Assembly (NCBI RefSeq): GCF_026625565.1 | Contig: NZ_CP112998.1 | Coordinates: 6,603,194 to 6,667,193, forward strand | DNA: 64,000 bases | Direction: 5' to 3' | DNA from: Dyadobacter pollutisoli | GTDB lineage: Bacteria; Bacteroidota; Bacteroidia; Cytophagales; Spirosomataceae | Shown: positions 6,190 to 37,400 of the stretch, one piece after another | Numbering within the stretch: the first letter of the stretch is position 1 | How the letters are laid out: every line of letters starts with the position of its first letter | Made by a program: the position numbers and the translations under genes | Notes under the pieces: generated by a model | Databases searched by the model: none | What the model saw: only the letters and a program-made list of their open reading frames with translations | Told to the model about the DNA's origin: nothing

Positions 6190-6642
6190 TTATGTTCTTA
6201 ATTGCCTAAAAAATTTGACTAACAACTCCTGCGATTCCGCGGCTAGAATTCCGCTTGACAACTTTGTTTTGGGGTGCAAAATACCTTTTCCTAATTTAGA
6301 GAAACCACGTTTTTCATCCATCGCGCCCAGTACCACCCGCTTCATCTGTGTCCAGTAAAGCGCACCTGCGCACATTACACAAGGTTCAAGCGTCACATAC
6401 AATGTGCAGTCCTGCAGGTACTTTGACCCCAGGTGGTCAGAAGCAGCCGTAATGGCGATCATTTCGGCATGGGCGGTCACATCATTGAGCTTCTCGGTCT
6501 GATTATAGCCTTTGCCGATAATGCGCTCTCCGATCACAACCACCGCACCGACGGGTATTTCGCCTTCGTCATACGCAACCTGCGCGAGACGTAGCGCCTC
6601 TGCCATAAAATGATGATCGAGAATGTCGGTCTGGATATCCAA
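6190..6642 (-). CDS. tadA: tRNA-specific adenosine deaminase
   Basis: CDA zinc motifs HAEMIAI and PCVMCAGAL; N-terminal MAEALRLAQ. 150 aa. Confidence 0.85.
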   Translation of the reverse strand: MDIQTDILDHHFMAEALRLAQVAYDEGEIPVGAVVVIGERIIGKGYNQTEKLNDVTAHAEMIAITAASDHLGSKYLQDCTLYVTLEPCVMCAGALYWTQMKRVVLGAMDEKRGFSKLGKGILHPKTKLSSGILAAESQELLVKFFRQLRT

Positions 6643-6723
6643 TGTCTTTTCCCAATAGGTGATAAAAAATGGGACATTTATCGCTAAGCAACAAATGTCC
6701 CATCCAGTGTTTTATAATGCAAA

Positions 6724-20816: not shown

Positions 20817-22028
20817 CTAGATGTCTTTCTCAATATCCTCAATCTTGGCGCCGCCGTGGATTACTTCCAGCAATTCGCGGAGGTCGTAGGTGGACCGGTT
20901 ATAAGAATTTCCAAGAACGATAATGACGGCTTCATCTTCGGGGCAAACCCAAAGCATGGTATTGTAGCCTTTCCACCAGCCACCGTGGTAGATAAAACGT
21001 GGAGAATTGTCTTCCTTAATGTGCATACGGAAGCCGTAGCCATAATTTCTGATGCCATTTCGTTCAAAGCTGCGGGGTTTGAATGCCTCGTCAAGCAGCT
21101 TTTTGTCCAGTAGCAAGCCTTTGGTAAGGCCATTGTAAAAGCGATAAATGTCCCCGGTAGTAGAATACAGTCCTTTATCGCCGACGACATCGTCATAGTA
21201 GTCCTTTTCTAGCTTGCGGCCAAACTGATGGCCGTCAGTTCTGTATTTTACTGCTGCGCTGGAAGTATCAGTAACCAAAAATGTATTCAACATACCCAGC
21301 GGCGCGAAAATTTGGTGGTATAAATATTTTCCGAAATCTTCGCCGGACACTTTCTCAACGATTGCAGCGAGTACGCAATAATTGGTATTACAATAATTGA
21401 ATGATCGGCCTGGGCGGTTGTAGGGAGTAGGGGTGGGCACCACCTTGGCATACCAATCCATGATGTCCAGGTTGTCAGGGTACTTTTTGCCGTGACGAAT
21501 GCTATCGGTAAATGAGTAAATGTAGTTGGGAAGACCGCTGCGATGGCTCAAAAGCATATCGACTTTTACGCCATGGTAGGGAAATTCTGGAAAAAACCGC
21601 TGAACAGAATCGTCGAGATTAACCCTTCCTTCCTGAATCAATTTCAGCACCGCAATAGCGGTAAATGGCTTGGATAACGAAGCCAGCTGGAACCTGGAAT
21701 CGGCAGTAAGCGTATCTTTTTGTTTGATATGGGCAAAGCCGAAGGAGTTCTGGTAAAGCACCTGACCTTTCTGAACGATCAGGACATTGCCATTAAAGCC
21801 AGCGTTTTTCTTCCTTCTGAAAATATCCTCGATTTTAGAGATTTTGAGGGCAGTTTCGGTGTCTGGATCTTTTACCGGGACTGGGTCAAGCTTCGCCATG
21901 ACCTTACCACCGACGATCACTTCCTCAGGGTTAGACTTACTTTTTCTTACCAATCCCCACGACACTACAAGGATTACCAGGACAGCTAATGCCGCCCACC
22001 ACACTTTCGGCTGCACTTTTTTCAACAT
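20817..22028 (-). CDS. Serine hydrolase, beta-lactamase/PBP fold
   Basis: S-x-x-K motif in FQLASLSKPFTAIAV; N-terminal TM/signal; 403 aa. Confidence 0.8.
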   Translation of the reverse strand: MLKKVQPKVWWAALAVLVILVVSWGLVRKSKSNPEEVIVGGKVMAKLDPVPVKDPDTETALKISKIEDIFRRKKNAGFNGNVLIVQKGQVLYQNSFGFAHIKQKDTLTADSRFQLASLSKPFTAIAVLKLIQEGRVNLDDSVQRFFPEFPYHGVKVDMLLSHRSGLPNYIYSFTDSIRHGKKYPDNLDIMDWYAKVVPTPTPYNRPGRSFNYCNTNYCVLAAIVEKVSGEDFGKYLYHQIFAPLGMLNTFLVTDTSSAAVKYRTDGHQFGRKLEKDYYDDVVGDKGLYSTTGDIYRFYNGLTKGLLLDKKLLDEAFKPRSFERNGIRNYGYGFRMHIKEDNSPRFIYHGGWWKGYNTMLWVCPEDEAVIIVLGNSYNRSTYDLRELLEVIHGGAKIEDIEKDI

Positions 22029-22115: not shown

Positions 22116-23252
22116 TTATGGAACTAGTATTTTAACATGTTCTTTGCGGCCATTTTTCTGATAAGTTAAGAAATATAAACCAGAAATTAGTAGTTGTTCG
22201 GGATATAAATGGATTAAATTTCCCTGAATTGGCTCAAAATGGAAGGAAATTGAGTTGCCGGATTGGTTGGAGAGGAGGAGGAAGTTTGGGTCGATATTTT
22301 GTCCGGAAATTGTAATTTTTTCAGGAGAGGCTGGATTGGGAAGTACCTGTATCGCGCTCTCCGGGGTAGGTGTGATGACATCCAAAGTCTTGGAAAATGA
22401 AAAGCTGCCATCCCGATCCACCATGCGCAGGCGATAGTAATTCGCTCCGGTCAATGGATTATCATCAATGAACTCGTACTGCATTCTGCCTGTCGTTTCG
22501 CCAGCAGCTTTCAATGTTCCTATCGCTTGGAAGTCTTTGAGGTCTGCACTGCGTTCAACGACAAATTCCTTGCTATTTTTCTCCCAGGCAGTTTCCCAGG
22601 AGAGCATTACCTTTTCCTCAGATTTTTCAGCTTTGAAATAGGTAATGTCAATGGGGAGGACGATGGCTAGGACTTGGCCGTTGATGATGATTTCGTCGAA
22701 CCAGAGGGTGCCATTGACAAAATTCACGGCATTGAATCCATAGATCCGAAATGAAAAGTTGTTGTTAGAAAGATTGTTAAAACTTACAGGAATGTTGTAA
22801 GAGTAGAAAGCATCTGGAGTTATTAATGTTGATGCCGCGACATCTGACGTAAAATTGTCGAGTACTGTACGCAATTTAAATGCTGATGGACCAACAGTAG
22901 AGCGTCGCAGGCGAAACGAAATCGAGGTTATGTTGTATTTGAAAGAATTCGCGCTAAATGAAAACTCCATACAACGACCCGCGGAAAAAGCAGCAGGCCA
23001 AGGTCTAATGACATAGCCAACAACCACGGCTCCACTTGCACTGTAAACGCTAAGCAAGGAGTAGGTATTGACCCCTCCTAGCAAAGATGCATCACTCGGT
23101 GAAAAGTTGGCATGGCTTGAAGTTCCTGCCTGATTGTAGTCCATTGACCATTTAATTTGGAAATTTTCCTGTGCATTAGCTCTAAACACAAAGATTAGCA
23201 TCATGATCATAGTCATTGCTGCGTTCTTAGGGGAGATGTAGTTCCTTTTCAT
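22116..23252 (-). CDS. T9SS type-A sorting-domain protein (378 aa)
   Basis: Signal peptide and C-terminal T9SS CTD (...IQVLPNPASPEKITISGQ...LISGLYFLTYQKNGRKEHVKILVP). Confidence 0.75.
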   Translation of the reverse strand: MKRNYISPKNAAMTMIMMLIFVFRANAQENFQIKWSMDYNQAGTSSHANFSPSDASLLGGVNTYSLLSVYSASGAVVVGYVIRPWPAAFSAGRCMEFSFSANSFKYNITSISFRLRRSTVGPSAFKLRTVLDNFTSDVAASTLITPDAFYSYNIPVSFNNLSNNNFSFRIYGFNAVNFVNGTLWFDEIIINGQVLAIVLPIDITYFKAEKSEEKVMLSWETAWEKNSKEFVVERSADLKDFQAIGTLKAAGETTGRMQYEFIDDNPLTGANYYRLRMVDRDGSFSFSKTLDVITPTPESAIQVLPNPASPEKITISGQNIDPNFLLLSNQSGNSISFHFEPIQGNLIHLYPEQLLISGLYFLTYQKNGRKEHVKILVP

Positions 23253-23388
23253 GCGAATTGTGGTTTACAGTATTTACTTTATGTAATACGGTAATGTGTT
23301 GAAAAGGTAACGGGGGTGTAGTAGGTTGGGAAATCTGGAAGAGAAAAGATTAAGTCCGAAATATTGAGTTTCAGTCTGAAAACTTAAA

Positions 23389-23427
23389 AAGCCCCTAAAA
23401 TGATCCATACGGGACGTTTAGGGGCTT
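23389..23427 (-). terminator. Terminator of the RHS-immunity operon
   Basis: AAGCCCCTAAA...TTTAGGGGCTT 11-bp stem followed on the minus strand by TTTTTAAGTTTT. Confidence 0.55.
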
Positions 23428-23480
23428 AATCATAACAGTTGGCCTGATTCAACTTACATTAGAGCTGTAAAGCCCTTTTT

Positions 23481-24032
23481 TCACTGTCGTGGTAATTCAT
23501 CTTGCCTGGCGGGCCTGACTCGTTTGAATTCAGGCTCTTTCAAATTTAAATCTGGTATTTTATAAAGTTTCAGCATTTCCATCCTGCTACTCAGACCCAA
23601 ACTTTGAAATTCAGATAAAACAGGGGTGTCGCGGCTGTACTGATCAAAACCGACAGATCTAAAAGAAATGATTCCGCTCTGTGTTTCGATCAACCAGTCC
23701 CATTCTGTTTTTTTATCTATATACTCTTCGTTCTTTGGCTTTCGAGGGTTTTCTCTATGTATGTCTGAAATCTCAATTTCTCCATCAGTTTCTAAATCAA
23801 TTTTCAAATCCCATACATTGTGAAAAACCAGGGTGGATGGAGATAGTAGGAATTTATAGTACTCACTTGTAGAATCCGTGATCCATTCAAAAATATAGTC
23901 AATATCAAGTATTAACCTAAAATTACTATCATCAGAAAGAATGGAATAGATTTTACAATCATGCCAGCCCATTTTCTCGAAGTCGGCATCGTTCCAGTTT
24001 TCTTTATATTTAGTGTTTTCCATGGGTCTCAT
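23481..24032 (-). CDS. Putative immunity protein for the RHS C-terminal toxin (183 aa, acidic, cytoplasmic)
   Basis: Start ATGA overlaps the RHS stop by 4 nt; no signal peptide; the position is that of a polymorphic-toxin immunity gene. The C-terminal 19 aa resemble the toxin C-terminus. Confidence 0.5.
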   Translation of the reverse strand: MRPMENTKYKENWNDADFEKMGWHDCKIYSILSDDSNFRLILDIDYIFEWITDSTSEYYKFLLSPSTLVFHNVWDLKIDLETDGEIEISDIHRENPRKPKNEEYIDKKTEWDWLIETQSGIISFRSVGFDQYSRDTPVLSEFQSLGLSSRMEMLKLYKIPDLNLKEPEFKRVRPARQDELPRQ

Positions 24033-27000
24033 TGGTTAGGAATTTCATCTTTTCTTGCTGGACGTACCGTTTTAGTGCCAGGCTCCTTAACATGTGGTGT
24101 TGGTACTCCACCATGCTGATTCCCCGTTATATCAACTCTCTTGGTTTCTTGAAATCCGCTAGGATTTTTCGGGTTCTCCTTATACGTTGCTGTATTCGTT
24201 GTTTTACCTGTTTTAGAATCGGTTCTAAACCTGCTATGGTCCCCTAGCGCTTTTGGATCTGGTTTTAAGTGATTGCTGCCCCGTCCAGTATTTTCAGTAG
24301 AACTTGCATTTACCCTCCCCTTATCATTCTTCAAATTATCAACCGCATTGATACTGATAGTAGCTCCTTGGGTCATCGCAGCTACGGCAACAGTTGCGCC
24401 AGCTAATGTAATAGGCAACGCGGCACCACCACTTGCTGCTGTTCCAAAACCAGATGCGCCTGCAACAAGTGCACCACCAGCAATTTCCGCTGCTCCAACA
24501 ACCATAGCTGCATAATGACCTGCCGTTCTGCCGCTATTGTAGGCACCTACATAACCTGGTGTCGCGGTAATAGGATTTCCACCATGAATGTCGTCATTTA
24601 ATGCTGATCCTATACCGGTTACAAAATCGCCGAGTCCTTTACAGCATTCCGGCCATCTTCCATCCGGATCAGAGAACCGTATCGGATTATTGAACGAGTA
24701 ATGATACGGAGAAAATCCATCTTGTCCCTCCGTATCCGGATCCACTGCCATAAACCGCCCTGTCGTCGGATCGTAGAATCTGGCCAGTAAATCAACATAT
24801 CCGGTGCCAATTTGAGTTTCTCGATTTAAAAAATTGTAGCGATTAACGGCATTCCGTGCCGCTGGGGTCTGAATTGGGCTGTTTCTATCAATCTCCAATC
24901 CAAACGGATAGTAATCCGTCCGCTGCAATAACTCCCCTTTCGCATTGAACACAACCCTGACATTGCCCAGATGATCTTTAAGGAAATATTCAAAACTTAC
25001 CTTATTTCCCCTGAGAACAGCTTGCCCTTCTTGCAATGGAATACGATATAACTGATTAGTTGCGCCAACTTGCCGATATTCAAATCCACCCGCATACTTT
25101 ACAGTCATAGTATCGGTCACGTACTTGTGTTTCGAACCAGCAGCATCATAATCGTAGATGAAAGTCTTACCAGCCATCGTTACGGTTTTAGGAAAATTCA
25201 AATAGTTATAGGTTAGTGTTGCACCGCGATTCCCGTCACTTGTCACATTGCCATTACCATCATATCCGTAACTACTTGCACCGCTTTTCACTCCCAGATT
25301 ACTCCCTGAGGCATCGTTGACAGCTGACAGCCGATTGCCGATGTATGTGTAGGTCAGATTATCCAAGACGGCACCGCCACGGACAAGTGTTTTGATATTT
25401 CCATTCTTGTCATAAGTGAGCCCGTTTTCGATTTCGGCATAACCATTCAATCCGGTGGAACTTAATATTCTGTTCGCACCGTCATAGTTGAAATTTAATC
25501 CTTTTGTAAAAGCAATTTCATCTTTGTTTTGCCATTGCATTTGGGAAATGTTACCATTCGTATAACTTGCACCGTCGGCATAACTTAGGCCAAATCCAAA
25601 AAAGGGTAAAGGTGGATCGCCAACAGCCTTCTTGTAAACAGTTTTTCCGTCTGTAAGCCAGCCACGAATGTTGTGGGTGTAATCAGTCCTTCTCACATAG
25701 TTCACGCCATCCATGGAATGAAACCATTTGCTTTGCAATTGGCCAAGTGCGTTGTAGCGATAAGCGGAGGTGTTAACTTCAATTATATCATCGTCAAAGT
25801 CAACTGTCTCCACCGCATCCAGAACACGGTCAGCATGATCATGTTGAAAATATATTTCATACCCTGTATTGAAATTCCCGGGGAATAGGTGAACGGTAGT
25901 CTGAATGTCAATTATAGGGGCCAAATCATATTTGTACATTCTCCAAGTACGTTCAATTGTCCCCGCTCCCAAATCATAAAGCTCCCTGTCAGTTTGGATT
26001 GGCCGATATTCTCCATCATAATAAGTAACACTCGTCAGCCAGCCACCTGTCGCACCATTTCCGGGAAGCATTCGTACTCGGCCTCCCGTAACCTGCCCTT
26101 TCACATTAGCATTGTTTGAAGGGTAGTAAAGAGCATTATAAGCCAGGTTCGCCGCCTTCGAAAACCCATAATCATCATAAAAAGTAATAGTCAACAAATC
26201 AGCCTCAGTAGCATTCAATGGAGCCGTTTTATTCAAAGTATAGCCTGCTGTTGTACCATTACTCCGTTCCTCATGGTGCTCTGCAATGGCGGCGACGTTC
26301 GATGTCCAGGTCGTACGGGTAGCATTCGTGGCAATTTCACCCGTTACTATCGGGCGGTTTTGAGCGTCGTATTTGGTGAAGCTCCATACTCCTCGGGCAA
26401 ACTGGTTGGCGTCACGCGATGCCACGAGCCGGTCGAACTGGTCATAGACGAGTTCGGTAATGCCGCCACCCGGGGTTCTTTTAATAACAACCCTTCCGAA
26501 TTCGTCATAATCGTAAGTAAAGGCGAAGTCGGTAAGCGAGGCCTGATCCTGGTATTGAGGTTGTAACACGGCACGCAGCAAACCAATGTCGTCATACACA
26601 TAGTAAGTCGACAAGATTACCGCGGATGGCCCGACCCCCGGGACGGCGACAACCTGCCTGCAAACCATGCGACCCAGCAAATCGGTATATTCTGTAACCG
26701 TTTTTCCTTCTTCGTCCGTAGTTTGTACGTAAGTTATTGTTCCGGGCGCATAGCCTCCGGGTTGCGAGATCACATTGGTGGGGATGTCATAATCGTATCG
26801 TTTTAATTCACCGCAACAATTGGTTTTGTACTTTACATTGGAGTTGGCACTTTTTCCTCCTGGTGCCCTTTGTCCAGTCACCCGGCTTAAAGGTGATTGT
26901 TCAAAAAAACTTTCCGTGTATGGTCTGGCCAGATCGGTCGCTTGTAAACCCGCAGAATTGGCAATGTACCAAGTCGCAGCACTGGGTACTCCATTGTTTT

Positions 27001-27331
27001 GGTAAGCGCCATTGCCCGAAGCTACATAAGGCAAATATTGCTTGGTCTGCCTTCCCGCCGCATCAAATTCAATGGGTTCCACAAAATCGCTGCCAGAAGG
27101 GCTTTGTCCGACGGTGACGTTTTGCTGTGGCCGACCGAGACCGTCCAGATATTGCACCTGTGTAACTACCTTGCTCACATCATTGGAATTGGCACCCGAC
27201 TGTTTATAAGTGCGTGAAATGATATAATTGCGGCTGTTGGTTTGCTGCGCGAGTACGATTCCCGGGAACAGGAAGAGCAGGAGAGTGATAATGTATTTGT
27301 GAAGATGGTTCATTTTTATGTTGTTGTTCAT
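24029..27331 (-). CDS. Secreted RHS/YD-repeat protein with a C-terminal polymorphic toxin domain (1100 aa)
   Basis: Signal peptide; multiple YD repeats (YDAQNRPI, YDGEYRPI, YDKNGNIKT, YGYDGNGN); RHS core end RFYDPTTGRFMAVDP...FSDPDGRW at about 24655-24670; then an about 208-aa variable C-terminal domain. Confidence 0.9.
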   Translation of the reverse strand: MNNNIKMNHLHKYIITLLLFLFPGIVLAQQTNSRNYIISRTYKQSGANSNDVSKVVTQVQYLDGLGRPQQNVTVGQSPSGSDFVEPIEFDAAGRQTKQYLPYVASGNGAYQNNGVPSAATWYIANSAGLQATDLARPYTESFFEQSPLSRVTGQRAPGGKSANSNVKYKTNCCGELKRYDYDIPTNVISQPGGYAPGTITYVQTTDEEGKTVTEYTDLLGRMVCRQVVAVPGVGPSAVILSTYYVYDDIGLLRAVLQPQYQDQASLTDFAFTYDYDEFGRVVIKRTPGGGITELVYDQFDRLVASRDANQFARGVWSFTKYDAQNRPIVTGEIATNATRTTWTSNVAAIAEHHEERSNGTTAGYTLNKTAPLNATEADLLTITFYDDYGFSKAANLAYNALYYPSNNANVKGQVTGGRVRMLPGNGATGGWLTSVTYYDGEYRPIQTDRELYDLGAGTIERTWRMYKYDLAPIIDIQTTVHLFPGNFNTGYEIYFQHDHADRVLDAVETVDFDDDIIEVNTSAYRYNALGQLQSKWFHSMDGVNYVRRTDYTHNIRGWLTDGKTVYKKAVGDPPLPFFGFGLSYADGASYTNGNISQMQWQNKDEIAFTKGLNFNYDGANRILSSTGLNGYAEIENGLTYDKNGNIKTLVRGGAVLDNLTYTYIGNRLSAVNDASGSNLGVKSGASSYGYDGNGNVTSDGNRGATLTYNYLNFPKTVTMAGKTFIYDYDAAGSKHKYVTDTMTVKYAGGFEYRQVGATNQLYRIPLQEGQAVLRGNKVSFEYFLKDHLGNVRVVFNAKGELLQRTDYYPFGLEIDRNSPIQTPAARNAVNRYNFLNRETQIGTGYVDLLARFYDPTTGRFMAVDPDTEGQDGFSPYHYSFNNPIRFSDPDGRWPECCKGLGDFVTGIGSALNDDIHGGNPITATPGYVGAYNSGRTAGHYAAMVVGAAEIAGGALVAGASGFGTAASGGAALPITLAGATVAVAAMTQGATISINAVDNLKNDKGRVNASSTENTGRGSNHLKPDPKALGDHSRFRTDSKTGKTTNTATYKENPKNPSGFQETKRVDITGNQHGGVPTPHVKEPGTKTVRPARKDEIPNQ

Positions 27332-27367
27332 GTATGGAAAAGGATGTTGGTGGAGCAGTCGGCAGTC

Positions 27368-27432
27368 GGCTATCGGCTTTCGGCCATTGACCGCTAACCA
27401 TTGTTTTTGCCGATGGCCGAAAGCTGATCGCC
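27368..27432. other. Long imperfect hairpin between the SpvB-like gene and the RHS gene
   Basis: GGCTATCGGCTTTCGGCCAT (27368-27387) pairs with ATGGCCGAAAGCTGATCGCC (27413-27432). 18 of 20 positions are complementary, with a 25-nt loop. Confidence 0.6.
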
Positions 27433-27442
27433 GAAAGCCGCC

Positions 27443-30400
27443 CTACTGTTTCACAATTCGGTGAGTGGCGATACTTCCATCGGTGTAGGTAATTTGGATG
27501 ATGTACAATCCAGCGGTCAGCTTGCTGGTATTGATTTCCCTGGCTGCGGTCTCTTCCTTGACCAGGTTGCCATCGGTATCGAAAATTCGGATGTTGCTGA
27601 TTTTGCTTAAATCTTCTATCCGCAGGTTCAATGTATTTTCAACGGTAACCGGATTAGGATAGAGTGCGACTTTTTCGTCCTCGTCAAAAATTACACTCTG
27701 AATGCGACTGTAAGCAAAAGTGCTGTCTGCATCCACCATTTTTAACCTGTACAGGTTCTCGCCGCCCATTGGATTGACATCAATAAACGAATAGGATTTT
27801 AGCGAATCACTTTCTCCCATTGCCTGCTCAGAACCTATTTTCATCCATTGTTTTCCGTCCGGGCTGCGTTCAATATCAAATCGCTCACTGTTAGTTTCGT
27901 TAGTAGTCGACCATTTCAACAATGCAGAGTCTTCTAGTTTTGTCGCAATGAATTCCAGTAGCGTCACAGGCAATGCTGATTCAGCCAACAGCACCAGTGT
28001 GCTGGCCGCGATACTGCCAGTGGGCGCCAGGGCGGCACATTCTATTACTTGTCCGGCATAGTTGTAGCAATAAGAAGAGCGCACTGCTCCGGCTGCATTG
28101 GCGGTACGGGTGCTTTTGAGGCGATTGAAATCGTCGTATTCATAGAAAATGACTTTTGAATTCACATCTGACTCTGTCTCAACCCCCACCAGGGGCTTGT
28201 AAGTATAGGCGGAAGAATGCGGCAGCGAGGTTCCTTCAAAATCAGTGCGCTTTTTCAACAGATCTGTTTTGCCAATATCCGCTACGCCGAAGTATTCCAA
28301 CTTGGTCGTCGACCCGTTCCGCTCTTTATAGGTGAGTAAATTTCCTCTTGCGTCATAAGTAAGAAATTCAATGCTGGTCGTCATCGCTATCGGTAAGTTC
28401 GTGCCAACACCGTTCTCGACTTTTTTGGGAAGATAAAATCCATTGAACAAGCCAAAAGTGACATTTTGAAGTTTCAATGCAATCGGCGTCATTTCAGTAC
28501 CAGTATAATTGAAAACTGTAAGCGGCGTACCGATCTGGTTTTTTGCCGTCATTGCAACGCTGACTGCATCATTGGAATTGGGAGGATAGACATACCAGGT
28601 TTTTAGCTCTTTGCCTTCACTATCCGTTTGTCCCTGAATATGAATTTGCCCGGTTGGCCAATAGCTGTAATTTTTAATGACCGGCGCGGAAAATTGTGCA
28701 GGACTGTCCTGATCATACGTTGTCGTGATTTCCTGCGAAGGCAGGAATTTCCTTACGTCGATCAGATATGCTGTTCCTTCATACACCCTGTGGTCTCCGT
28801 CACACAAATACTTTAACAAAGTTTTCTCCGCACGGGCCGAATAATCCGTCAGGTTGCCGACCAGAGCATATTGATAGGCAGTCTTCGCAACCCTGTCGGC
28901 GTTTTGAAGATAATGCTCTTCCGAAATCATTTTCCCTCGCTGAAAAGCCGCACTTATATAAGGCTGATAGGCCGTGCTGCTCACCTGTAACGTGCCCGAC
29001 GGTGCAGTGTCCAAATACCCATTGTCGAAATTGGTGAATTTGTAAACTGTCCAGCCGCCTGTGTAACTGCTTTCCACAACTTCTGAATAGCCAATATGCG
29101 ACCCGTAGCTATTTTCCGAACCTGGCAATACGGATTGAGTAGAGAAAATATTTTCAGTATAAGTGAAATTGTCGCCCGGTTTCGGTTGATAGCCAGCCCA
29201 ATAATATTGCGCTTTACCACCAAGCACCCCGCTTGAAAGCAGAGGAGCGTTGGGTGAAGCAGGATTAAAACCTGAGACATAAGAGTAGCTCTTAATTACA
29301 TCTGATCCGGCGATATTAGGGTCGTAACTTTTAATTTGTTTGATACGGAGACCACCGGCTAGTTTATCCGTAACATAGGTATCCAGCTCCGTCCATCGCT
29401 TTTCCTTTACTTCTTTTGAATAGGTATGTGGCTCAAAAGTAAATTCGGCAAAACCACCGGTGGGATACTTAATTTTCGTCAAAGTGCTCAATTTAACGTA
29501 CTTACTATCCGCGTCTGGCGAACGAAAGGTCGCGCCATAAGAAGTGAAAAAGTTTGGAATGTTGAAATCGACAGCTGCTATCAGTTTCCCATTGTTATAG
29601 CCCCAATGGTCGGCATGCGTCCTGGCATAGGGTGGCAGGGTAATGCCGGCCGAAGTGAAATAAGTGAATTCGTAGGCAGGTAGCACTTTGGCGCCGGATT
29701 TCTCCTGCACTTTCTGCAACATAAGCCGCTCGGTAGCTAGATTGTTGTAGGTAAATTCGAATTCCTTCAAGGTTGTTCCACTCGGGTTCTGAATCTGGAT
29801 TTTGTCAAGCTTACGCCATTGTAAAGCGGCTAGCAGATCCGCAAGCGGCGGATTTGTCTCCACGCAGGCTCCGGATTTGACAGGATAAAAGCAAGGGTAT
29901 AAATACGTTAGAATATCCAGCGTGCGGCTGTTTCCGGCTCCTGGTCCTGAGGCTTTGTTCCAATTCACATAAGCATCGAAGATAGCCTGGTCATACCGGA
30001 GCTCTGTACTTTGGGACGACGTAAACTTGACCTTATAGTTGTCGCTTGCAATCTCTTTCAGGTAAATGGGAGAAATAAGTTTGCCGTTGATGGGACCATT
30101 GACGGGGAAGAGAGAAGGATTGGATTCACATTCGGCATCCAGACTTCCGCCACCGTCCACACTATATTGTCCCTGATAGAGCGCAAAGTACATTTGGGCA
30201 ACCATTGCACCCCTTTCGTAAGTAAAGTTAGTAACCTGACCAGTAGCTTTTGTGATCGACTTTAAATACCAGGCATTACAGTTCCATGTTTCGGAGCCCT
30301 GTGCGAAAAAGTCCATACCATACTCCATATACGCATTAGTGCCGCCAAATTCATACTTTGTTCCCCACTCGTCAGTGATGAAAAATCCTTTGGCGTGTGC

Positions 30401-31081
30401 CCGGTAGTTGGCCTGATTCTTCCATACACTAAAAACCTCTACGTGGGTATTTGTAGGAGGTGTGAATGGCGGGTAGGTGTCCATTGCGAGAGAGCTCAAT
30501 TCCACCTTTACCGGCCGGTTACACAAGACTTTAAATTTGCCATCGTGCCCCCAATAAAACTTTCCGGAAATTCCCGGCAGGTTAAAGGAATATTCATCGG
30601 GTTCCATATCCCTTCCCAAAGCGCTGTTATCCGCAATGGATTTGATGCCAGCCTGCGTATTCCAGTTGTTATCATTGACCAGGTTTGCAGTGAAAAGATA
30701 GCCCAGTTTACCACGGCTGTCTTCATAAGGGCAGTCGTCAGGACCGTCTTTAATGGTCCGTACAACCGCATAGTTTGTTGAGAGATTAAAATTTAATCCA
30801 ACCCAACCCGGATGTGCGTCCGGGCGTACACCCGAAGCATCATAATGCAAGGATATTGGTATTTCCAACCCTTGTTCGGATAAAGTATGCAGGTTCACCC
30901 CAATGTCTGGTTTTCCGGTAAAGTGGGAAATCGGGATATTGCCGTAGATGCCTAAGCTGGCGGTTGTGGGGCTTTGGATTGTTTTAGGCGGCTCGGGAAT
31001 CTGAGAATGGGCCGAAAGTGAAAAAAGTAATCCGTGTGCCAGAAAATAGATCCATTTTCCGGGTTTGTGAAGAAAAATCAT
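27443..31081 (-). CDS. SpvB/TcB-N-terminal-like secreted protein with T9SS C-terminal sorting domain (1212 aa)
   Basis: Signal peptide; N-terminal IPISHFTGKPDIGVNLHTL...IPISLHYDASG...GWVGLNFNLS resembles the SpvB/Tc-toxin B N-terminal domain; C-terminal type-A T9SS CTD (LYPNPVTVENTLNL...GLYIIQITYTDG...RIVKQ). Confidence 0.7.
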   Translation of the reverse strand: MIFLHKPGKWIYFLAHGLLFSLSAHSQIPEPPKTIQSPTTASLGIYGNIPISHFTGKPDIGVNLHTLSEQGLEIPISLHYDASGVRPDAHPGWVGLNFNLSTNYAVVRTIKDGPDDCPYEDSRGKLGYLFTANLVNDNNWNTQAGIKSIADNSALGRDMEPDEYSFNLPGISGKFYWGHDGKFKVLCNRPVKVELSSLAMDTYPPFTPPTNTHVEVFSVWKNQANYRAHAKGFFITDEWGTKYEFGGTNAYMEYGMDFFAQGSETWNCNAWYLKSITKATGQVTNFTYERGAMVAQMYFALYQGQYSVDGGGSLDAECESNPSLFPVNGPINGKLISPIYLKEIASDNYKVKFTSSQSTELRYDQAIFDAYVNWNKASGPGAGNSRTLDILTYLYPCFYPVKSGACVETNPPLADLLAALQWRKLDKIQIQNPSGTTLKEFEFTYNNLATERLMLQKVQEKSGAKVLPAYEFTYFTSAGITLPPYARTHADHWGYNNGKLIAAVDFNIPNFFTSYGATFRSPDADSKYVKLSTLTKIKYPTGGFAEFTFEPHTYSKEVKEKRWTELDTYVTDKLAGGLRIKQIKSYDPNIAGSDVIKSYSYVSGFNPASPNAPLLSSGVLGGKAQYYWAGYQPKPGDNFTYTENIFSTQSVLPGSENSYGSHIGYSEVVESSYTGGWTVYKFTNFDNGYLDTAPSGTLQVSSTAYQPYISAAFQRGKMISEEHYLQNADRVAKTAYQYALVGNLTDYSARAEKTLLKYLCDGDHRVYEGTAYLIDVRKFLPSQEITTTYDQDSPAQFSAPVIKNYSYWPTGQIHIQGQTDSEGKELKTWYVYPPNSNDAVSVAMTAKNQIGTPLTVFNYTGTEMTPIALKLQNVTFGLFNGFYLPKKVENGVGTNLPIAMTTSIEFLTYDARGNLLTYKERNGSTTKLEYFGVADIGKTDLLKKRTDFEGTSLPHSSAYTYKPLVGVETESDVNSKVIFYEYDDFNRLKSTRTANAAGAVRSSYCYNYAGQVIECAALAPTGSIAASTLVLLAESALPVTLLEFIATKLEDSALLKWSTTNETNSERFDIERSPDGKQWMKIGSEQAMGESDSLKSYSFIDVNPMGGENLYRLKMVDADSTFAYSRIQSVIFDEDEKVALYPNPVTVENTLNLRIEDLSKISNIRIFDTDGNLVKEETAAREINTSKLTAGLYIIQITYTDGSIATHRIVKQ

Positions 31082-31241
31082 GCGAGAAAGGTGTCTAAAA
31101 AGATGAATAAATATTTCTATTATTCATTTAGACGTAGCTTCTCAAAAGGGTAACAAATATTTCTAAACGCAAAAAAGCATTCATTCCGATTCAGTACCGG
31201 GAATCAATGCTTTTGAAAATTTACTCTGATCCTTAGCCTGC

Positions 31242-32759
31242 TTACTCAGCTTTTCCGGAACCTTTTGGAGGTACATTTCCCGGTAATTCCGGGTTTGTTC
31301 CTTTCAAGTAATCGGGAAGGTTAAGTCCCGCCATGTTGAAAAGATCATTGAGCGGAGGAACGGTTTTCATCATGCCGGATACAAAATTGGCGGTAGAAGA
31401 ACTGTCCCCGCTACCATTTCCTGAATCCCAAACTGTGATTTTATCGATTTTGATATTTTTCACAGCTTCTACCTGTGTCTTCACCAATTCAGGCAATTTC
31501 TCCAATAGTAGTAATTGGAAAGCCTTCGACGGGTCGCCGCCCGCTGCCTTTACTACTTCTCTGTAACCTTCGGCCTGCTTGGTCAGAATTTCATACAAAC
31601 CACGGGCCTCAGCATCCATCTTGGCGAATATAGCATCTGCCTCGCCCTTAGCATTTTCTCGTATTCTTTCTGCTTCGGCCTGTGCGTCAATAATTGCTTT
31701 TTGTTTGGCAATTTCCGCCGGGACCACCACATTGGCGATCTGAGTGGAGCGTTCCCTTTCCGATCGGGCCAATTCCGCTTTTTGTTCCGCAAGATATGCT
31801 TCTTCCAAAGCTTTTGCTTGCTGTACCTTTTCTGCTGAGATGGCTATTCGCAGCGATTCAGCTTCTTTTTCACGGCGTAAGGCCTCAGAATTCGCAATAT
31901 CAATCTTCGCGGCATTCTCCCCCTGAACAGCTATTGCGTTTGCCTCCGAAGTTTTCACCCGGGTATCTCTGGTTGCCTCCGCCCTTCCGATCGCCTCGTC
32001 CTTAGCCGCCGACGCAATACTAATTTCCCTGTCCTTATTCGTAATGGCAATTTTCACATCACGGTCGCGATGCGTTTCTGCAATTTGTACGTCACGCTCA
32101 CGGTCTGCCATGGCTTTACCTGTTTCTCCGATTTTTTCCTGTTCCGCCACACTGATCTTGGCTTCATTGATTGCTTTCGCTGCGGCTTCCTTACCTAATG
32201 CCTCAATGTACCCAGATTCGTCCCTGATATCGGTAACATTCACATTGATAAGCCTTAACCCGATCTTCTTTAACTCATTATCAACGTTTTTAGAAATATT
32301 ATCCAGAAACTTATCCCGGTCGGAATTGATCTCCTCGATCGTCATTGTAGCAATAACCAATCGAAGCTGTCCGAAAAGAATATCCTTCGAAAGCTCCTGT
32401 ATTTGGTCAGGAGTAAGCCCAAGCAAACGTTCAGCGGCATTGTTCATGCTGTCCGTTTCAGTCGAGATCGCGATCGTAAAACGACACGGAACATCCACAC
32501 GGATATTCTGACGGCTGAGGGCATTCGTCAGGTTTGCTTCTATTGAAATTGGTTTTAGGTCCAGAAACGCGTAGTCCTGGATCACCGGCCAGATAAATTC
32601 GCCGCCGCCATGGATACATTTCGCAGAAGTACCTCCCGTACGCCCATATACGACCAGGATTTTATCGGACGGACACCTTTTATATCTTGAAATAAGCGCC
32701 GCAACTGAAACAAAAATAACGATGACTGCTACGAACAATACGATTAGAGAGCCTGACAT
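31242..32759 (-). CDS. Flotillin/SPFH (band 7) family protein, YqiK-like
   Basis: N-terminal TM, SPFH domain, long Ala/Glu-rich coiled-coil (AEQKAELARSERERSTQIANV...AEAERIRENAKGEADAI). Confidence 0.85.
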   Translation of the reverse strand: MSGSLIVLFVAVIVIFVSVAALISRYKRCPSDKILVVYGRTGGTSAKCIHGGGEFIWPVIQDYAFLDLKPISIEANLTNALSRQNIRVDVPCRFTIAISTETDSMNNAAERLLGLTPDQIQELSKDILFGQLRLVIATMTIEEINSDRDKFLDNISKNVDNELKKIGLRLINVNVTDIRDESGYIEALGKEAAAKAINEAKISVAEQEKIGETGKAMADRERDVQIAETHRDRDVKIAITNKDREISIASAAKDEAIGRAEATRDTRVKTSEANAIAVQGENAAKIDIANSEALRREKEAESLRIAISAEKVQQAKALEEAYLAEQKAELARSERERSTQIANVVVPAEIAKQKAIIDAQAEAERIRENAKGEADAIFAKMDAEARGLYEILTKQAEGYREVVKAAGGDPSKAFQLLLLEKLPELVKTQVEAVKNIKIDKITVWDSGNGSGDSSSTANFVSGMMKTVPPLNDLFNMAGLNLPDYLKGTNPELPGNVPPKGSGKAE

Positions 32760-32852
32760 GAAAGACGAAAATTAATTGATGAATAATGTGAGAATATAAT
32801 TTTGAAGTAAGCGAAAGTTGACTAAGTGAGAAAGAAACTAATTTTAATCAAG

Positions 32853-33491
32853 TTATAATCTTTGTACGACAACCAGATTGTCACTTTCCACTTTACAGAC
32901 CCGGATCAATGTTCCGGGTATAATTCTATCTTCTTCGGTAACTGCGTCCAATTCGCGGAAAGAGCCTTTTACACTCACCTGTACCTTGCCCTTTCCCTGT
33001 TTTTGCCCCGGAATGGTGAGGTAAACTTCTCCTGTTTTTTGTAAGGCGCTATTAATGTTAAAAGTATTATTCTCTGCAAGCTTTTGTATTTGCCCCATGG
33101 TGATGAAAAATAAAAAGACAAACCCTGCACCTACACCCACAGCCAGGGCGATCAGGATTCCTTTGTTACTAATGGTTTGGAAGAAAGCTACGCCGGTCCA
33201 GCCGAAGCCAAGGAGGAAATTGATCAGGTTACGAAAAGTGAATAACTGAAAAGGCGCGTCCCCTATATCCAGATCTCCGTCAAAATCGGCATCCAGCCCA
33301 TCTGACGAATCCATTCCGGCAAAAGTCATGACGGCCAGGATTACAAATATGAGGCTTACCGAGAGGGCAATGTACCAGAATATACGATGTAGGGATTCCA
33401 AATCACCAAACAGGTCCATAAAACTTGCAACGATTAGTGAGAAGCTGATATCAATTTTTAAATATAATTCATTAGACGGACCTTTTCTCAA
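32853..33491 (-). CDS. NfeD/YqiJ-like membrane protein, partner of flotillin
   Basis: Membrane N-half plus C-terminal OB-fold-like tail (GKVQVSVKGSFRELDAVTEEDRIIPGTLIRVCKVESDNLVV); located upstream in the same operon as the flotillin gene. Confidence 0.65.
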   Translation of the reverse strand: MRKGPSNELYLKIDISFSLIVASFMDLFGDLESLHRIFWYIALSVSLIFVILAVMTFAGMDSSDGLDADFDGDLDIGDAPFQLFTFRNLINFLLGFGWTGVAFFQTISNKGILIALAVGVGAGFVFLFFITMGQIQKLAENNTFNINSALQKTGEVYLTIPGQKQGKGKVQVSVKGSFRELDAVTEEDRIIPGTLIRVCKVESDNLVVVQRL

Positions 33492-33766
33492 TAAGTAACG
33501 GTTCTTGCCAAAATGTAAACAAAGAATTTAGTTGTTGGACATATCGCATTGGGTTGGTAAGGAGGCCTAAACAAAAAATGCCGATCTCAGACCGGTATTT
33601 TCAATGTTAAAACTCTACGCTTTTCGACGTTGGTCGATATAATCGGGTCAGACGTGGAGGTTTTCGTGAGACTAAAACAAACTCAGCTGTGTAGTTTTCA
33701 TTGGATGAAATGTGCCAATTATTAAAAATGGGTTGCGTCCAGTATTATGGAACTCACGAGTAGTTC

Positions 33767-34483
33767 CTAAAAATAAATGCAAATCTTTCGTTTTTGCAAA
33801 GTCCTCAAAATATTTTTTCCTAACTTTTTCGCATGCTCTTTGTTCATTTCCTTCATGCTCAGCCAACATTCTCCAATCTCCCAGTCTTCAATCATCAAAG
33901 TACTTTCAGTGCCACCCTCGCTACTGAACTTATAGGAAAATTTATATGGCAGTTTTCGAACAACCTCAAATGGATTTTCAGAGTTCGAGAATAAATTCAA
34001 CTGATTAGCTCGCGCTTTCAGAGCTTCGAGTTTATTTTTGTCCCATGTCCTTGCGACACTCTCAATTGTGAAGTCCAGAATCGCCTTTGGTTTGAAAACG
34101 GCCAATGAAATATACTGTTTTGGATCCCTCGCTTTGGCGATTAACTCTGTTATGTTTGTATGAACATTTTTAAGAACGATCTCTTTTCTGGCCCTCCAAG
34201 TACCTTTCTCAGTCCCAATCTCACCAACTATTTTAAAAGCGGTATCAATGGATCTAGGACGGTAGCTTTCCGACCGAAAGTCAGACCTATTCTTTTCCAA
34301 ATCCACTTCAACCCAGTCATATTTGCTGTACTGACTCTCATAATCAAGCTTTCGAAACGGTATTGGATAGATTCTGATCCAGCTTCCGTCTTCAAGAAAA
34401 CCTGCCGTGCAGACTAATTCATCGTACTTATTTGATAGTGTGGGGTAAGTTTTGACCGCGACCAAAACTTTTGTTAGTGCCAT
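33767..34483 (-). CDS. Hypothetical protein (238 aa), second gene of the orphan two-gene module
   Basis: ORF separated by 1 nt from the upstream DUF488 gene; no signal peptide; no domain recognised. Confidence 0.6.
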   Translation of the reverse strand: MALTKVLVAVKTYPTLSNKYDELVCTAGFLEDGSWIRIYPIPFRKLDYESQYSKYDWVEVDLEKNRSDFRSESYRPRSIDTAFKIVGEIGTEKGTWRARKEIVLKNVHTNITELIAKARDPKQYISLAVFKPKAILDFTIESVARTWDKNKLEALKARANQLNLFSNSENPFEVVRKLPYKFSYKFSSEGGTESTLMIEDWEIGECWLSMKEMNKEHAKKLGKNILRTLQKRKICIYF

Positions 34484-34484
34484 T

Positions 34485-35370
34485 CTAGATATGTTTTAAT
34501 TCAAAATTCCATTCGGGTAGTTTTATAATTGCTTCTGCTAAATGTTTTCTGTGGCACTGGCAAATATTTGCTTCAAAGCAAGTTAGTGCAATTCGCTTTT
34601 TTTCTTTCAATAAGTTAAGGATTTGCTCCTGATGGCTTATTGTCTCTTGCAAATTCTGTTTTCTGTAAATTTCAAATAGCTTGTCGTAGTCTTTTTGAGT
34701 ATTAAGTTCTTGCCTTTGGTCAGATTGAATCCCTACTTCTGGGATATGCAGGTAATCAATTCCCAAATTCTCACAAAATTTTTTTAATTGCTTTTTAGAA
34801 AACCCGAACTTCATACTCAATGGGTTATTTCTAACATCAACCAAAATCTTTACGTCATTTTTAACAAGCCGATTTAGATATTCTTCCCAGAGAAATTCCC
34901 TCATATCCAATGGTATATAAAACCGTTTTATCATTAACCGGTTTTGCTCTTAAAACGCTCTCATATTGCTCATTAGAAAGAATTTGCTTGGCTTTGACAC
35001 TGTTTATTGAATAGTATTGATAGTTCAGATACGTCAGTTTGATCAGTAAATCTGTTGTCAAATTTCCGTAAGAGTTTCTAATATCAATTAAGATTTTTTT
35101 ATCCTTTTCATTCAGCAACTTAATATAATTATCGGAGCCAATTTTGGTGTAGCTCGCCTGATCTTCTGATAATTGGCCGTGCCCAACCATTGCAACTAGG
35201 TCCGCATTAGCCGAAAAGGAATAGCAACCGTATTTGTAGGGCACAAAATCGTAAACTTGTTTTGATTGTCTTTCGGTAAAAAGGAAAAGCAGCTTTTGGA
35301 GGGAGATTTTAGGCAAATGTCCATCAAAGGCTTGTAGTAAGGCCAGTATAATTTTTCGTCTGTAGAACAT
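34485..35370 (-). pseudogene. Frameshifted fusion gene: N-terminal Panacea(DUF4065)-like(?) domain plus C-terminal DUF488 domain
   Basis: ORF 34861..35370 ends ...KTVLYTIGYEGISL, which matches the DUF488 start iyTIGhs. The overlapping ORF 34485..34934 continues ...REFLWEEYLNRLVKNDVKILVDVRNNPLSMKF...LGIDYLHIPEVG, the DUF488 core. The two frames join if one G is removed from GAGGGAA (plus-strand CCC at 34898-34900). The N-domain ISLQKLLFLF...FVPYKYGCYS is weakly Panacea-like. Confidence 0.6.
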
Positions 35371-35648
35371 GCTGTAAAGGTAAAGAAATAGTCACAAAGA
35401 CGTTCCAAGTTTGCAAACGGATGAACCAACGGCATCCCGTTCCCAAATATCCCCCTAACACAATTTGCTTTTCTCACAACAAAATCAGCATATTCGCATT
35501 CCCAATTAAATAAGCATAAAATGAAAAATCTAGTAAGTATTGCCCTGTTATGGTGTGGATCAAGTGAAAACTCCTGGGCGCCTACATGCGGGCGCGGGAC
35601 ACCTAAGACAGGGCATTTTTAATTTTTTTTCTTCCCAAAAAACCAGCA

Positions 35649-35894
35649 TTGATGAACAAAACACACTTTACCGAGTCTCCGGACCCGATGTGCGTGGCCT
35701 ATGGTCAGCAAGTACAACAATTATTTGAGCTCAACACGCCCGCCGAAATGGCCGAGCATCTGTGGGAGATTTACAGCGGTTTTCAGAGTTATGATCAGGA
35801 AGCCGGTCACAGTCCGCGCAAGCTGGACATCTTCTACACATTTCGTGATCTGCTGTTTTTTTGCCAGAATATGGCAGCATTAAAGGCGGCGTAA
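35649..35894 (+). CDS. Hypothetical small protein (81 aa)
   Basis: Coding-like composition and own downstream hairpin terminator; no homology recognised. Confidence 0.35.
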   Translation: MMNKTHFTESPDPMCVAYGQQVQQLFELNTPAEMAEHLWEIYSGFQSYDQEAGHSPRKLDIFYTFRDLLFFCQNMAALKAA

Positions 35895-35919
35895 TTAATA
35901 AACGTCCGATATAAAGAAG

Positions 35920-35953
35920 AATGCCCAGGTAATAGAAAAATCACCTGGGCATT
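35920..35953. terminator. Bidirectional terminator hairpin between the 81-aa ORF and asnS
   Basis: AATGCCCAGGT...ACCTGGGCATT 11-bp stem, T-rich on both flanks. Confidence 0.6.
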
Positions 35954-35963
35954 TATTTTGCTT

Positions 35964-37400
35964 TTAAAACTCTGCGCTTTTCGGATATCTCGGGAATGGA
36001 ATCACATCCCGAATATTACCCATACCCGTCACAAACAGTACCAAACGCTCAAATCCAAGCCCGAAGCCGGAGTGCGGTGCGGTGCCGAATTTACGGGTTT
36101 CGAGGTACCACCAGATTGTCTGGGGATCGATTCCTACTTCGTGAACGCGTTCCAGAAGTTTGTCATAATTATCCTCACGCTGGCTTCCTCCAATGATTTC
36201 TCCAATGCCCGGGAAAAGGACGTCCATCGCGCGTACCGTTTTCCCATCCTCATCGAGTTTCATGTAAAATGATTTGATTTCTCTCGGATAGTTGGTCAGG
36301 ATAACCGGCTTTTTGAAATGTTTTTCAACCAGATAACGCTCATGCTCGCTGGAAAGGTCGATTCCCCAGCCAACAGGATACTGGAATTTCTTCTCTTTAT
36401 GTGGTTTTGATTTCAATAAAATATCAATGGCCTCCGTATAAGTCAGACGTTCGAAAGGATTGTCAACAACAAAACTCAGCTTTTCGAGCAATGGCAGCGA
36501 ACGTTCATTTTGCGGTTTGCTTTTTTCTTCTTCCGCCAGCCTGTTCTGTAAAAAGTTCAGGTCATCCTTGCAGTTAACCAGGGCATAACTAATGACCGTT
36601 TTGACAAAATCTTCGGCCAGGTCCATATTGTCTTCCAACTCAAAAAATGCCATTTCCGGCTCTATCATCCAAAATTCGGCCAGGTGACGGGTCGTATTGG
36701 AATTTTCGGCTCGGAAAGTTGGGCCAAATGTATATATCTTGGAAAGTGCCATGGCACCCAGTTCGCCTTCCAATTGTCCCGAGACAGTCAGGTTGGCTTC
36801 ACGACCAAAAAAGTCCTCTTTGAAGTTAATAGCGCCTTCTTCGGTTCTCGGTAACTTGTTAAGATCCAATGTAGTAACACGGAACATTTCTCCTGCACCC
36901 TCAGCGTCCGACGCCGTAATGATCGGCGTATGTAGGTAAAAGAAACCCTTATCATTGAAATATTGGTGAACCGCAAAAGCCAGCGCGTGACGAATGCGAA
37001 GGATCGCCCCGAAAGTGTTGGTACGCGGACGCAAATGCGCTATTTCACGAAGAAATTCAAGCGAATGCTTCTTAGGCTGCAATGGATACGCATCAGGATC
37101 GGCAGTTCCGTAAACCAGAATATCCTCTATTTTTACCTCAACGGTTTGTCCTGAACCCAGCGACGCTACTAACTGCCCCGTTATTTTAAGGCATGAGCCC
37201 GTAGTAACAGTTTGCAGCAATTCCGCAGAAAACTGACCCGGCTCAGCAACCGCCTGTATATTATGGATGGTGGAACCGTCATTCAACGCGATAAAAATTG
37301 CGTTTTTGCTCTCTCTTTTAGTCCTTACCCAGCCTTTGAGAACAACAGCTTGTTGCTCAGGAGCGGTTTGTAGTATTTCTTTGATTTGCAACGGTCCCAT
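35964..37400 (-). CDS. asnS: Asparagine--tRNA ligase
   Basis: Near-colinear with E. coli AsnRS: [72 protein letters not shown]; 478 aa. Confidence 0.95.

Follow-up and report, generated by a model that had tools for sequence, protein, structure and literature searches.

The 64-kb window analysed here (64,000 nt of Dyadobacter pollutisoli contig NZ_CP112998.1, numbered from its first letter) carries on its minus strand, at 35370..33672, two linked genes, referred to below as gene A and gene B, which almost certainly represent PDC-M19, a module listed in PADLOC-DB among candidate phage defences. Both genes contain frameshifting lesions. The explanation that we favour, with some reserve, is that the locus is a recently inactivated copy of PDC-M19 residing in an islet at asnS, and that the module in its intact form would be a toxin-antitoxin-like pair, providing abortive-infection-type defence or addiction.

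The pair is flanked by asnS (37400..35964) and by an NfeD-like gene and flotillin (33491..31242), and the coordinates of the open reading frames (ORFs) bear out the initial annotation of this DNA, which had placed two linked minus-strand genes between the flotillin operon and asnS. Gene A (34485..35370, minus strand) is divided between two ORFs that overlap, one of 169 aa (35370..34861) and one of 149 aa (34934..34485), and, as that annotation had anticipated, needs a frame repair, upon which the split ORFs become a single product of 294 aa. Its TAG stop at 34487..34485 is separated by 1 nt from the ATG of gene B at 34483, again as first described. Gene B is seen as a 238-aa ORF (34483..33767), the end of which is overlapped in another frame by a 65-aa ORF (33869..33672); tblastn recovers the gene in two pieces, and protein and DNA alignments assign it the interval 33672..34483 on the minus strand. 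The 238-aa product had originally been taken for a native orphan protein, with the feature ending at 33767. It is instead the product of a pseudogene cut short by a 13-nt deletion; the native protein has 273-274 aa and the true end of the feature is at 33672.

With the extra G removed, the gene A translation matches the PADLOC model PDC-M19A (PDLC04505) over 1-294 of 294 (E=1.5e-127), and repaired gene B matches PDC-M19B (PDLC04508) over residues 1-270 against 1-269 of 269 (E=3.8e-115), the latter score deriving from a provisional frame repair that was refined afterwards. Besides these end-to-end model matches, the window reproduces the gene order, strand and spacing of PDC-M19, with the two genes adjacent, on one strand and A before B; it departs from that system in that both genes are frameshifted, where a functional copy would have the two intact. 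In PHROGs, genes A and B match families 14939 and 25907, both of unknown function (gene B to phrog_25907, E=1.9e-64). The absence of a detectable domain in the downstream protein, as first reported, thus holds for Pfam and NCBIfam, neither of which gives a domain match, but not for PADLOC or PHROGs. Neither protein matches a metabolic family.

The module is therefore already catalogued as a defence candidate in PADLOC-DB and is not a new system, contrary to the earlier impression that it was undescribed. PDC-M19 was added to PADLOC without testing, as a "guilt-by-embedding" phage defence candidate (Payne et al. 2024, bioRxiv 10.1101/2024.01.29.577857). The method behind it collects cassettes that sit inside loci of BREX, DISARM or type I restriction-modification, and follows them with a RefSeq-wide search; one entry of the supplementary table reads CAS_00089, FAM_02799>>FAM_02993, marked for assignment to the candidates under the name PDC-M19, with 174 alongside (Payne et al. 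2024, 10.1101/2024.01.29.577857). PDC-M19 is not mentioned by name in the text of the literature searched.

The lesion in gene A is a GGG run with one G too many (34886..34888, minus strand). At about 34887 the window reads CTGGGAAG, compared with CTGGAAG in the aligned DNA of D. sediminis and D. beijingensis, and tblastn alignments split at 34888/34886. The 120 closest homologues of gene A are nearly all 294 aa long (range 283-306). The break falls just past the invariant TIGYEG motif with which the DUF488 domain described below begins, leaving the downstream fragment without TIGYEG. A programmed frameshift was considered and ruled out, given close homologues of about 294 aa, the absence of the extra G from three Dyadobacter DNAs, and the lack of a slippery motif. 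In gene B, alignment to the DNA of D. sediminis, D. beijingensis, D. bucti and D. luticola shows that 13 nt are gone at 33876/33875 (junction 33875..33876, minus strand, between GAGAT and TGGAGA; alignment columns 1526-1538). This deletion takes out the IG-ALY codons and shifts the frame, so that the last 67 residues, which are highly conserved, are out of frame up to the original stop at 33672; homologues of the native length of 273-274 aa span the repaired query completely. In gene B the C-terminal 67 residues are no longer in frame, and in gene A the split comes just within the first of the conserved motifs of DUF488; in all likelihood the copy is therefore a decayed relic with no function left, able at most to yield protein fragments.

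Both genes are very probably truly inactivated at this locus. The opposite view, that the frameshifts are assembly or sequencing artefacts and that D. pollutisoli has an intact module which is active, would be in keeping with the gene A lesion, a single base in a short G run, and with the good conservation of the remainder of both genes, where no stops were seen beyond the two lesions. We nevertheless regard it as very improbable: the loss of 13 nt from gene B is no homopolymer miscount, long uninterrupted ORFs (up to 1452 aa) make up 86% of the window and yet both lesions fall within 1.7 kb, which makes random errors unlikely, and the NCBI record for D. pollutisoli has the same truncated 238-aa protein (97% identity between the 238-aa ORF and a D. 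pollutisoli hypothetical protein in the homology search). Moreover, the same gene bears a different lesion in D. luticola. There, gene B (8887-9710 of the fetched locus) has been frameshifted independently by a 1-nt deletion in GATTGGGAT and is called as 154 + 121 aa, while gene A is intact and the module occupies the same asnS site. Loss of gene B with gene A still intact is the order expected if B were the harmful partner.

Genes A and B show a ratio of non-synonymous to synonymous substitution rates (dN/dS) of ~0.05 against their relatives; dS is saturated (at least 1.3), so that the ratio reflects long-term purifying selection only and neither dates the decay nor tests for relaxed selection. 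Together with the absence of extra stops, this value points to purifying selection for most of the history of the genes and to a recent inactivation. For gene B, dN between D. pollutisoli and D. luticola or D. bucti is 0.16, about double the 0.07 between D. luticola and D. bucti, and for gene A the three species are mutually equidistant at ~0.07. The imbalance in gene B could reflect a relaxation of constraint that preceded its decay, or an exchange of alleles.

In its C-terminal half, gene A clearly belongs to DUF488 (PF04343; E. coli YeaO family), as had been recognized from the outset, with residues 161-280 scoring 96.5 bits against a Pfam cut-off of 22.2 (E=2.2e-27). The DUF488 fold is PTP/rhodanese-like, of the phosphoesterase type, with a conserved cysteine and arginine. 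Burroughs and Aravind reportedly placed DUF488 in the rhodanese-phosphatase superfamily in 2023, and are said to have predicted DNA-end processing for a RapZ-C/DUF488/DUF4326 clade, with DUF488 processing the ends of nucleic acids within conflict systems. In a 48-sequence homologue alignment, D178, R180, H208, C264, E266 and R274 of gene A are invariant, with C264 at the end of a strand and R274 at the start of the next helix of a structure predicted from an input of 49 close homologues. The DUF488 motifs D-x-R, H, C-x-E and C-H-R, invariant in the alignments, are retained in the window copy. Against DUF488-N3a (PF22751), gene A reaches 22 bits, under the 27-bit gathering score; two close gene A homologues carry PF22751 as a precomputed annotation, and the DUF488 partners of distant gene B homologues pass its threshold with 32-36 bits. 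The DUF488 half (residues 149-293) also matches PDC-M45B and PDC-M45C of PADLOC at E about 1e-14, pointing to a second PADLOC candidate system built around DUF488 proteins. From the literature, a ParB-DUF488-HTH (helix-turn-helix) fusion is known to bind CTP; other papers on DUF488 were uninformative.

Residues ~1-148 of gene A form a domain resembling Panacea and the C-terminal domain of DarG. Profile models of DarG antitoxins from NCBIfam and PADLOC match it at E=2-3e-4, and 19 of 34 N-domains in the family match Pfam SocA_Panacea over nearly the whole profile, all below threshold (the best at E=2.9e-4; the member shown reaches 21.6 bits where the cut-off is 25.7). The motifs quoted in the initial annotation are present in gene A, and the stretch ISLQKLLFLF...FVPYKYGCYS aligns with residues 31-74 of DarG (7yk3). 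Sequence searches of the PDB with profiles of A, its N-domain and B returned weak matches only, DarG 7yk3 appearing at E=0.76-2.1. On these similarities, the N-domain may be classed as a remote homologue of Panacea, with the DarG C-terminal domain as its nearest solved relative. The original, cautiously worded Panacea assignment thus survives as remote homology, although no match rises above a curated cut-off. Mimicry of single-stranded DNA, which has been reported for the C-terminal domain of DarG, is not supported for the N-domain by its charge, the median isoelectric point being 9.3.

The structure model of gene B is confident (pLDDT 92) and resembles tandem OB nucleic-acid binders, including RPA, Teb1, the HIN domains of AIM2/p202, TEBP and two-OB SSBs, from which we conclude that gene B probably binds nucleic acid. 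Approximately 30 of its residues are invariant or nearly so, many of them charged. A PADLOC search at E up to 1 returned the PDC-M19B models alone and no DarT model. Two distant gene B homologues match Pfam DuOB (PF22557, 'dual OB-containing domain') at E about 2e-3, below cut-off. None of 82 close gene B relatives matches DuOB. Gene A of the window stays below N3a and these 82 B relatives lie below or off the DuOB model; the predicted fold of gene B is a tandem OB.

Homologues of both proteins are numerous, with ~6,700 for each in the 90%-identity clusters of a 5.8-billion-sequence collection and 2,145 clusters of gene B at the 50% identity level. Relatives of B occur in at least 590 stretches of one-genome-per-species contigs, mostly from Bacteroidota, a few being from other phyla. 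Adjacency of A and B could be tested in 80 loci from species-representative genomes. In all 80 of them the gene immediately upstream of B is a homologue of A, separated from it by 1-6 nt, which is more than chance would give, and no third gene recurs in more than five. The linkage extends to IMG/VR viral contigs with B, where an A-type or DUF488 gene is adjacent in 30 of 33, down to about 30% identity.

Relatives of B were also found on 23 plasmid records, including conjugative Sulfolobus plasmids on which B adjoins an integrase, and in the lysogeny module of seven Gordonia temperate phages, after an annotated immunity repressor. Several plasmids display a different arrangement of the two partners. 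B and a DUF488 gene converge in Pseudomonas, Rhizobium, Pseudochrobactrum and Streptomyces, the 3' ends often overlapping, the DUF488 protein being standalone in the first three and an HTH_XRE-DUF488 fusion in Streptomyces, and exceeding the DUF488-N3a threshold in all four; on a Fischerella plasmid the DUF488 gene lies downstream of B on the same strand. These plasmid pairs indicate that the deep conserved partnership is that of B with DUF488, to which the Bacteroidota form adds the N-terminal domain. At the Pseudomonas plasmid locus, a HEPN/Toprim-associated gene adjoins B/DUF488. In Gordonia phage Nymphadora (2521-4325 of the fetched stretch), the B homologue gp43 (27% identical) shares a 1-nt overlap with the end of gp44, and cro, an integrase and a HipA-like gene are neighbours of the two. 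The immunity repressor gp44 and the neighbour of B on Sulfolobus pSOG2 were both considered as possible relatives of gene A and proved unrelated. Type I/IIG restriction-modification genes are present in the fetched flanks of at least 15 of the 80 loci, nine of them with such genes within 1 kb of the module, and integrases in the flanks of 7 of 80; most copies are chromosomal and solitary, in variable contexts and with no other mobility genes nearby.

One alternative reading is that gene A is mainly a transcription factor, in which a winged-helix N-domain binds DNA, DUF488 senses or modifies a ligand, and expression of A and B is controlled without any protein-protein neutralisation. The basic character of the N-domain, the HTH_XRE-DUF488 fusion adjoining B in Streptomyces, and the position of B after the Gordonia immunity repressor (whose HTH is weak and which is no relative of A) all fit such a role. 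The sequence signal of the N-domain, however, is that of Panacea and DarG and not of HTH families, and we consider this reading quite unlikely; many antitoxins combine DNA binding with toxin neutralisation, so that a toxin-antitoxin-like function stays compatible with the same observations.

We place slightly short of even probability the interpretation of the intact module as a pair acting in toxin-antitoxin-like or abortive defence. The identity of the locus, its lesions, the linkage, the folds and the mobility are observed, and the choice of toxic partner, binding of A to B, an enzymatic activity and an anti-phage effect are inferred. Gene B would be the effector, a tandem OB protein binding single- or double-stranded nucleic acid, the free form of which would harm either the cell or a replicon that invades it. 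Gene A, the translation of which takes place just upstream of B, would be a two-part neutraliser: its N-terminal domain of the Panacea/DarG-C-terminal group would restrain B, and the target of its DUF488 domain would be a phosphate-linked group of a nucleic-acid end or nucleotide, counteracting or completing the action of B. The toxin-antitoxin or anti-phage proposal made in the initial annotation is partly supported by the variable neighbours, the nearby restriction-modification genes and integrases, and the carriage on plasmids and phages.

Several points weigh against this interpretation. Toxicity, neutralisation and phage defence of PDC-M19 are predictions, the system being an untested candidate in Payne et al. 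The Panacea/DarG similarity lies below curated thresholds, and the window copy itself scores only 13.9 bits (E=0.11) against Panacea (PF13274), for which the cut-off is 25.7. No catalytic fold or domain was recognised in gene B by structure comparison, which offers no obvious route to toxicity. The convergent orientation of DUF488 and B in Proteobacteria and Actinobacteria, without the antitoxin-like domain, is unusual for a toxin-antitoxin system and would equally fit a partnership of two enzymes. The association with restriction-modification genes (19% of loci) is a raw frequency, and the loss of B before A is seen in two genomes only.

The main rival to the toxin-antitoxin-like reading is that the pair processes or protects nucleic-acid ends for the mobile elements that carry it and is neither toxin-antitoxin nor defence. 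In the manner of SSB or RPA, B would serve to coat or recognise DNA that is single-stranded, or the ends of DNA, and a phosphate-linked group at the terminus would be trimmed or transferred by DUF488, for instance when DNA enters by conjugation, integrates or is repaired. The DNA-end processing reportedly predicted by Burroughs and Aravind would point the same way. Such a role would account for a tandem OB protein akin to RPA, SSB and Teb1 that has no catalytic domain, for the PTP-like fold of DUF488, for the presence of the pair on conjugative plasmids, beside integrases and in phage lysogeny modules, and for convergent pairs of B with standalone DUF488 that lack an antitoxin-like domain. It sits less well with the Panacea/DarG-C-terminal-like domain of the Bacteroidota form, which is typical of antitoxins, with the embedding of the module in restriction-modification systems, and with the solitary state of most copies, chromosomal, in variable contexts and away from other mobility genes. 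Taken together, we judge end processing to be unlikely.

Returning to the toxin-antitoxin-like reading, the closest comparison is DarTG. Kurata et al. (2022, PMC8832971), in the portions of their Panacea study that were searched, describe DarG as reversing the DarT modification and also binding DarT; DUF488 is absent from those portions, as are a DUF488 fusion and an OB-fold partner. Like DarG, gene A joins an enzymatic domain to a putative toxin-binding domain, and its N-domain resembles the DarG-type C-terminal domain at E=2-3e-4, below curated thresholds. In contrast to DarTG, the domain order in gene A is reversed and the antitoxin-like gene precedes its partner; in place of a macrodomain, to which gene A has no match, the enzyme is the PTP-like DUF488; and B is a tandem OB protein matching neither DarT models nor ADP-ribosyltransferase folds. 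With PanAT the module shares an N-domain close to SocA_Panacea at nearly full length, if below threshold, and an unrelated adjacent protein, as PanA is found with many toxin types; it differs in that no scanned gene A member reaches the Pfam Panacea cut-off. PDC-M19 might be a DarTG-like hybrid in which a toxic OB effector is countered by DUF488 as an enzymatic antitoxin, removing a phosphate-linked nucleic-acid modification or end group, and by Panacea/DarG-like sequestration, a possibility that we regard as somewhat doubtful.

The inactivated copy lies in an islet of 2.34 kb (33627-35963) between 20-nt direct repeats (33607-33626/35964-35983, 19/20 identical, no strand assigned), which holds a c4-2 RNA, an 80-aa ORF and genes A and B; no integrase is encoded within these 2.34 kb. 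The repeat copy at 35964..35983, located by the repeat search and the asnS ORF, is the true 3' end of asnS and bounds the islet on the left, and the copy at 33607..33626, from the same search, is a diverged duplicate of the last asnS codons and stop and bounds it on the right. Read in frame, the displaced copy ends ...SKSVEF before its stop, compared with ...PKSAEF in asnS. A direct repeat duplicating the 3' end of asnS is the signature of a site-specific insertion at that end. A terminator-like hairpin with a T run (33581..33595, minus strand) lies 3' of gene B and of the displaced asnS end; it comes from a consensus scan in which the count of such hairpins was no higher than in shuffled controls.

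Other Dyadobacter genomes show that the site is variably occupied. Dyadobacter sp. MSC1_007, D. endophyticus and D. fermentans have an empty asnS site, with a 377-aa gene and a beta-lactamase-family gene ~85 nt past asnS, so that the pair is not universally conserved in the core genome. In D. luticola a 3.3-kb insert lies exactly after the asnS stop and contains A and B together with an HTH gene, a c4-2 RNA and an 81-aa ORF. The intact module of D. bucti, D. beijingensis and D. sediminis is located at other places, with either an RND efflux operon or GtaA/DsbD genes close by. In the window, the 377-aa and beta-lactamase-family genes are found at 23252..22116 and 22028..20817, and the ~10.3 kb at 23253-33606, with NfeD, flotillin, 1212-aa and 1100-aa proteins and a 183-aa ORF, also look inserted or rearranged, which suggests an insertion hot spot downstream of asnS.

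The c4-2 RNA (RF02944, c4 antisense RNA clan) occupies 35539..35619 on the plus strand, in the spacer that separates gene A from the divergent 80-aa ORF, and matches the full Rfam model (53.4 bits, gathering score 41, E=3e-10); what is listed as an ORF at 35540..35728 is a translation of this RNA. The 80-aa ORF (35652..35894, plus strand) is intact, lies downstream of the RNA, and matches no Pfam or PHROG family. In D. luticola, D. bucti, D. sediminis and D. beijingensis an orthologue (51-82% identity) stands upstream of gene A, and c4-2 RNA is found at the same place in these four other Dyadobacter loci, so that all five loci, at two chromosomal sites, have the RNA/ORF cassette. D. sediminis carries three tandem c4-2 copies ~300 nt apart upstream of the module (6275-6946 of the fetched locus), compared with one in the other Dyadobacter. 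No c4-2 RNA was detected in 75 non-Dyadobacter loci with a search model built from the Dyadobacter copies. As a general third component of the module, the 80-aa ORF and the c4-2 RNA were both ruled out, being confined to Dyadobacter among the loci compared. In the immunity region of phage P1, arranged c4 - icd - ant, c4 is followed by the 73-aa icd. The islet resembles this P1/P7 c4 region in having a c4-clan RNA directly upstream of an ORF of ~80 aa, but differs in that the 80-aa ORF belongs to no known family, no ant-like gene follows, and the cassette accompanies the module in Dyadobacter only.

For D. pollutisoli itself the finding is of little importance, as the copy is dead and the family already stands in a public catalogue of defence candidates. 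The interest lies in the family, which is very large and spans bacteria, archaeal plasmids and phages, and of which D. sediminis, D. bucti and D. beijingensis hold intact orthologues of the pair. It ties the uncharacterised DUF488 to a tandem OB partner and, in Bacteroidota, to an antitoxin domain of the DarG/Panacea type. If the DarTG-like hybrid reading were true, it would give DUF488, which occurs bacteria-wide and includes E. coli YeaO, its first biochemical role.

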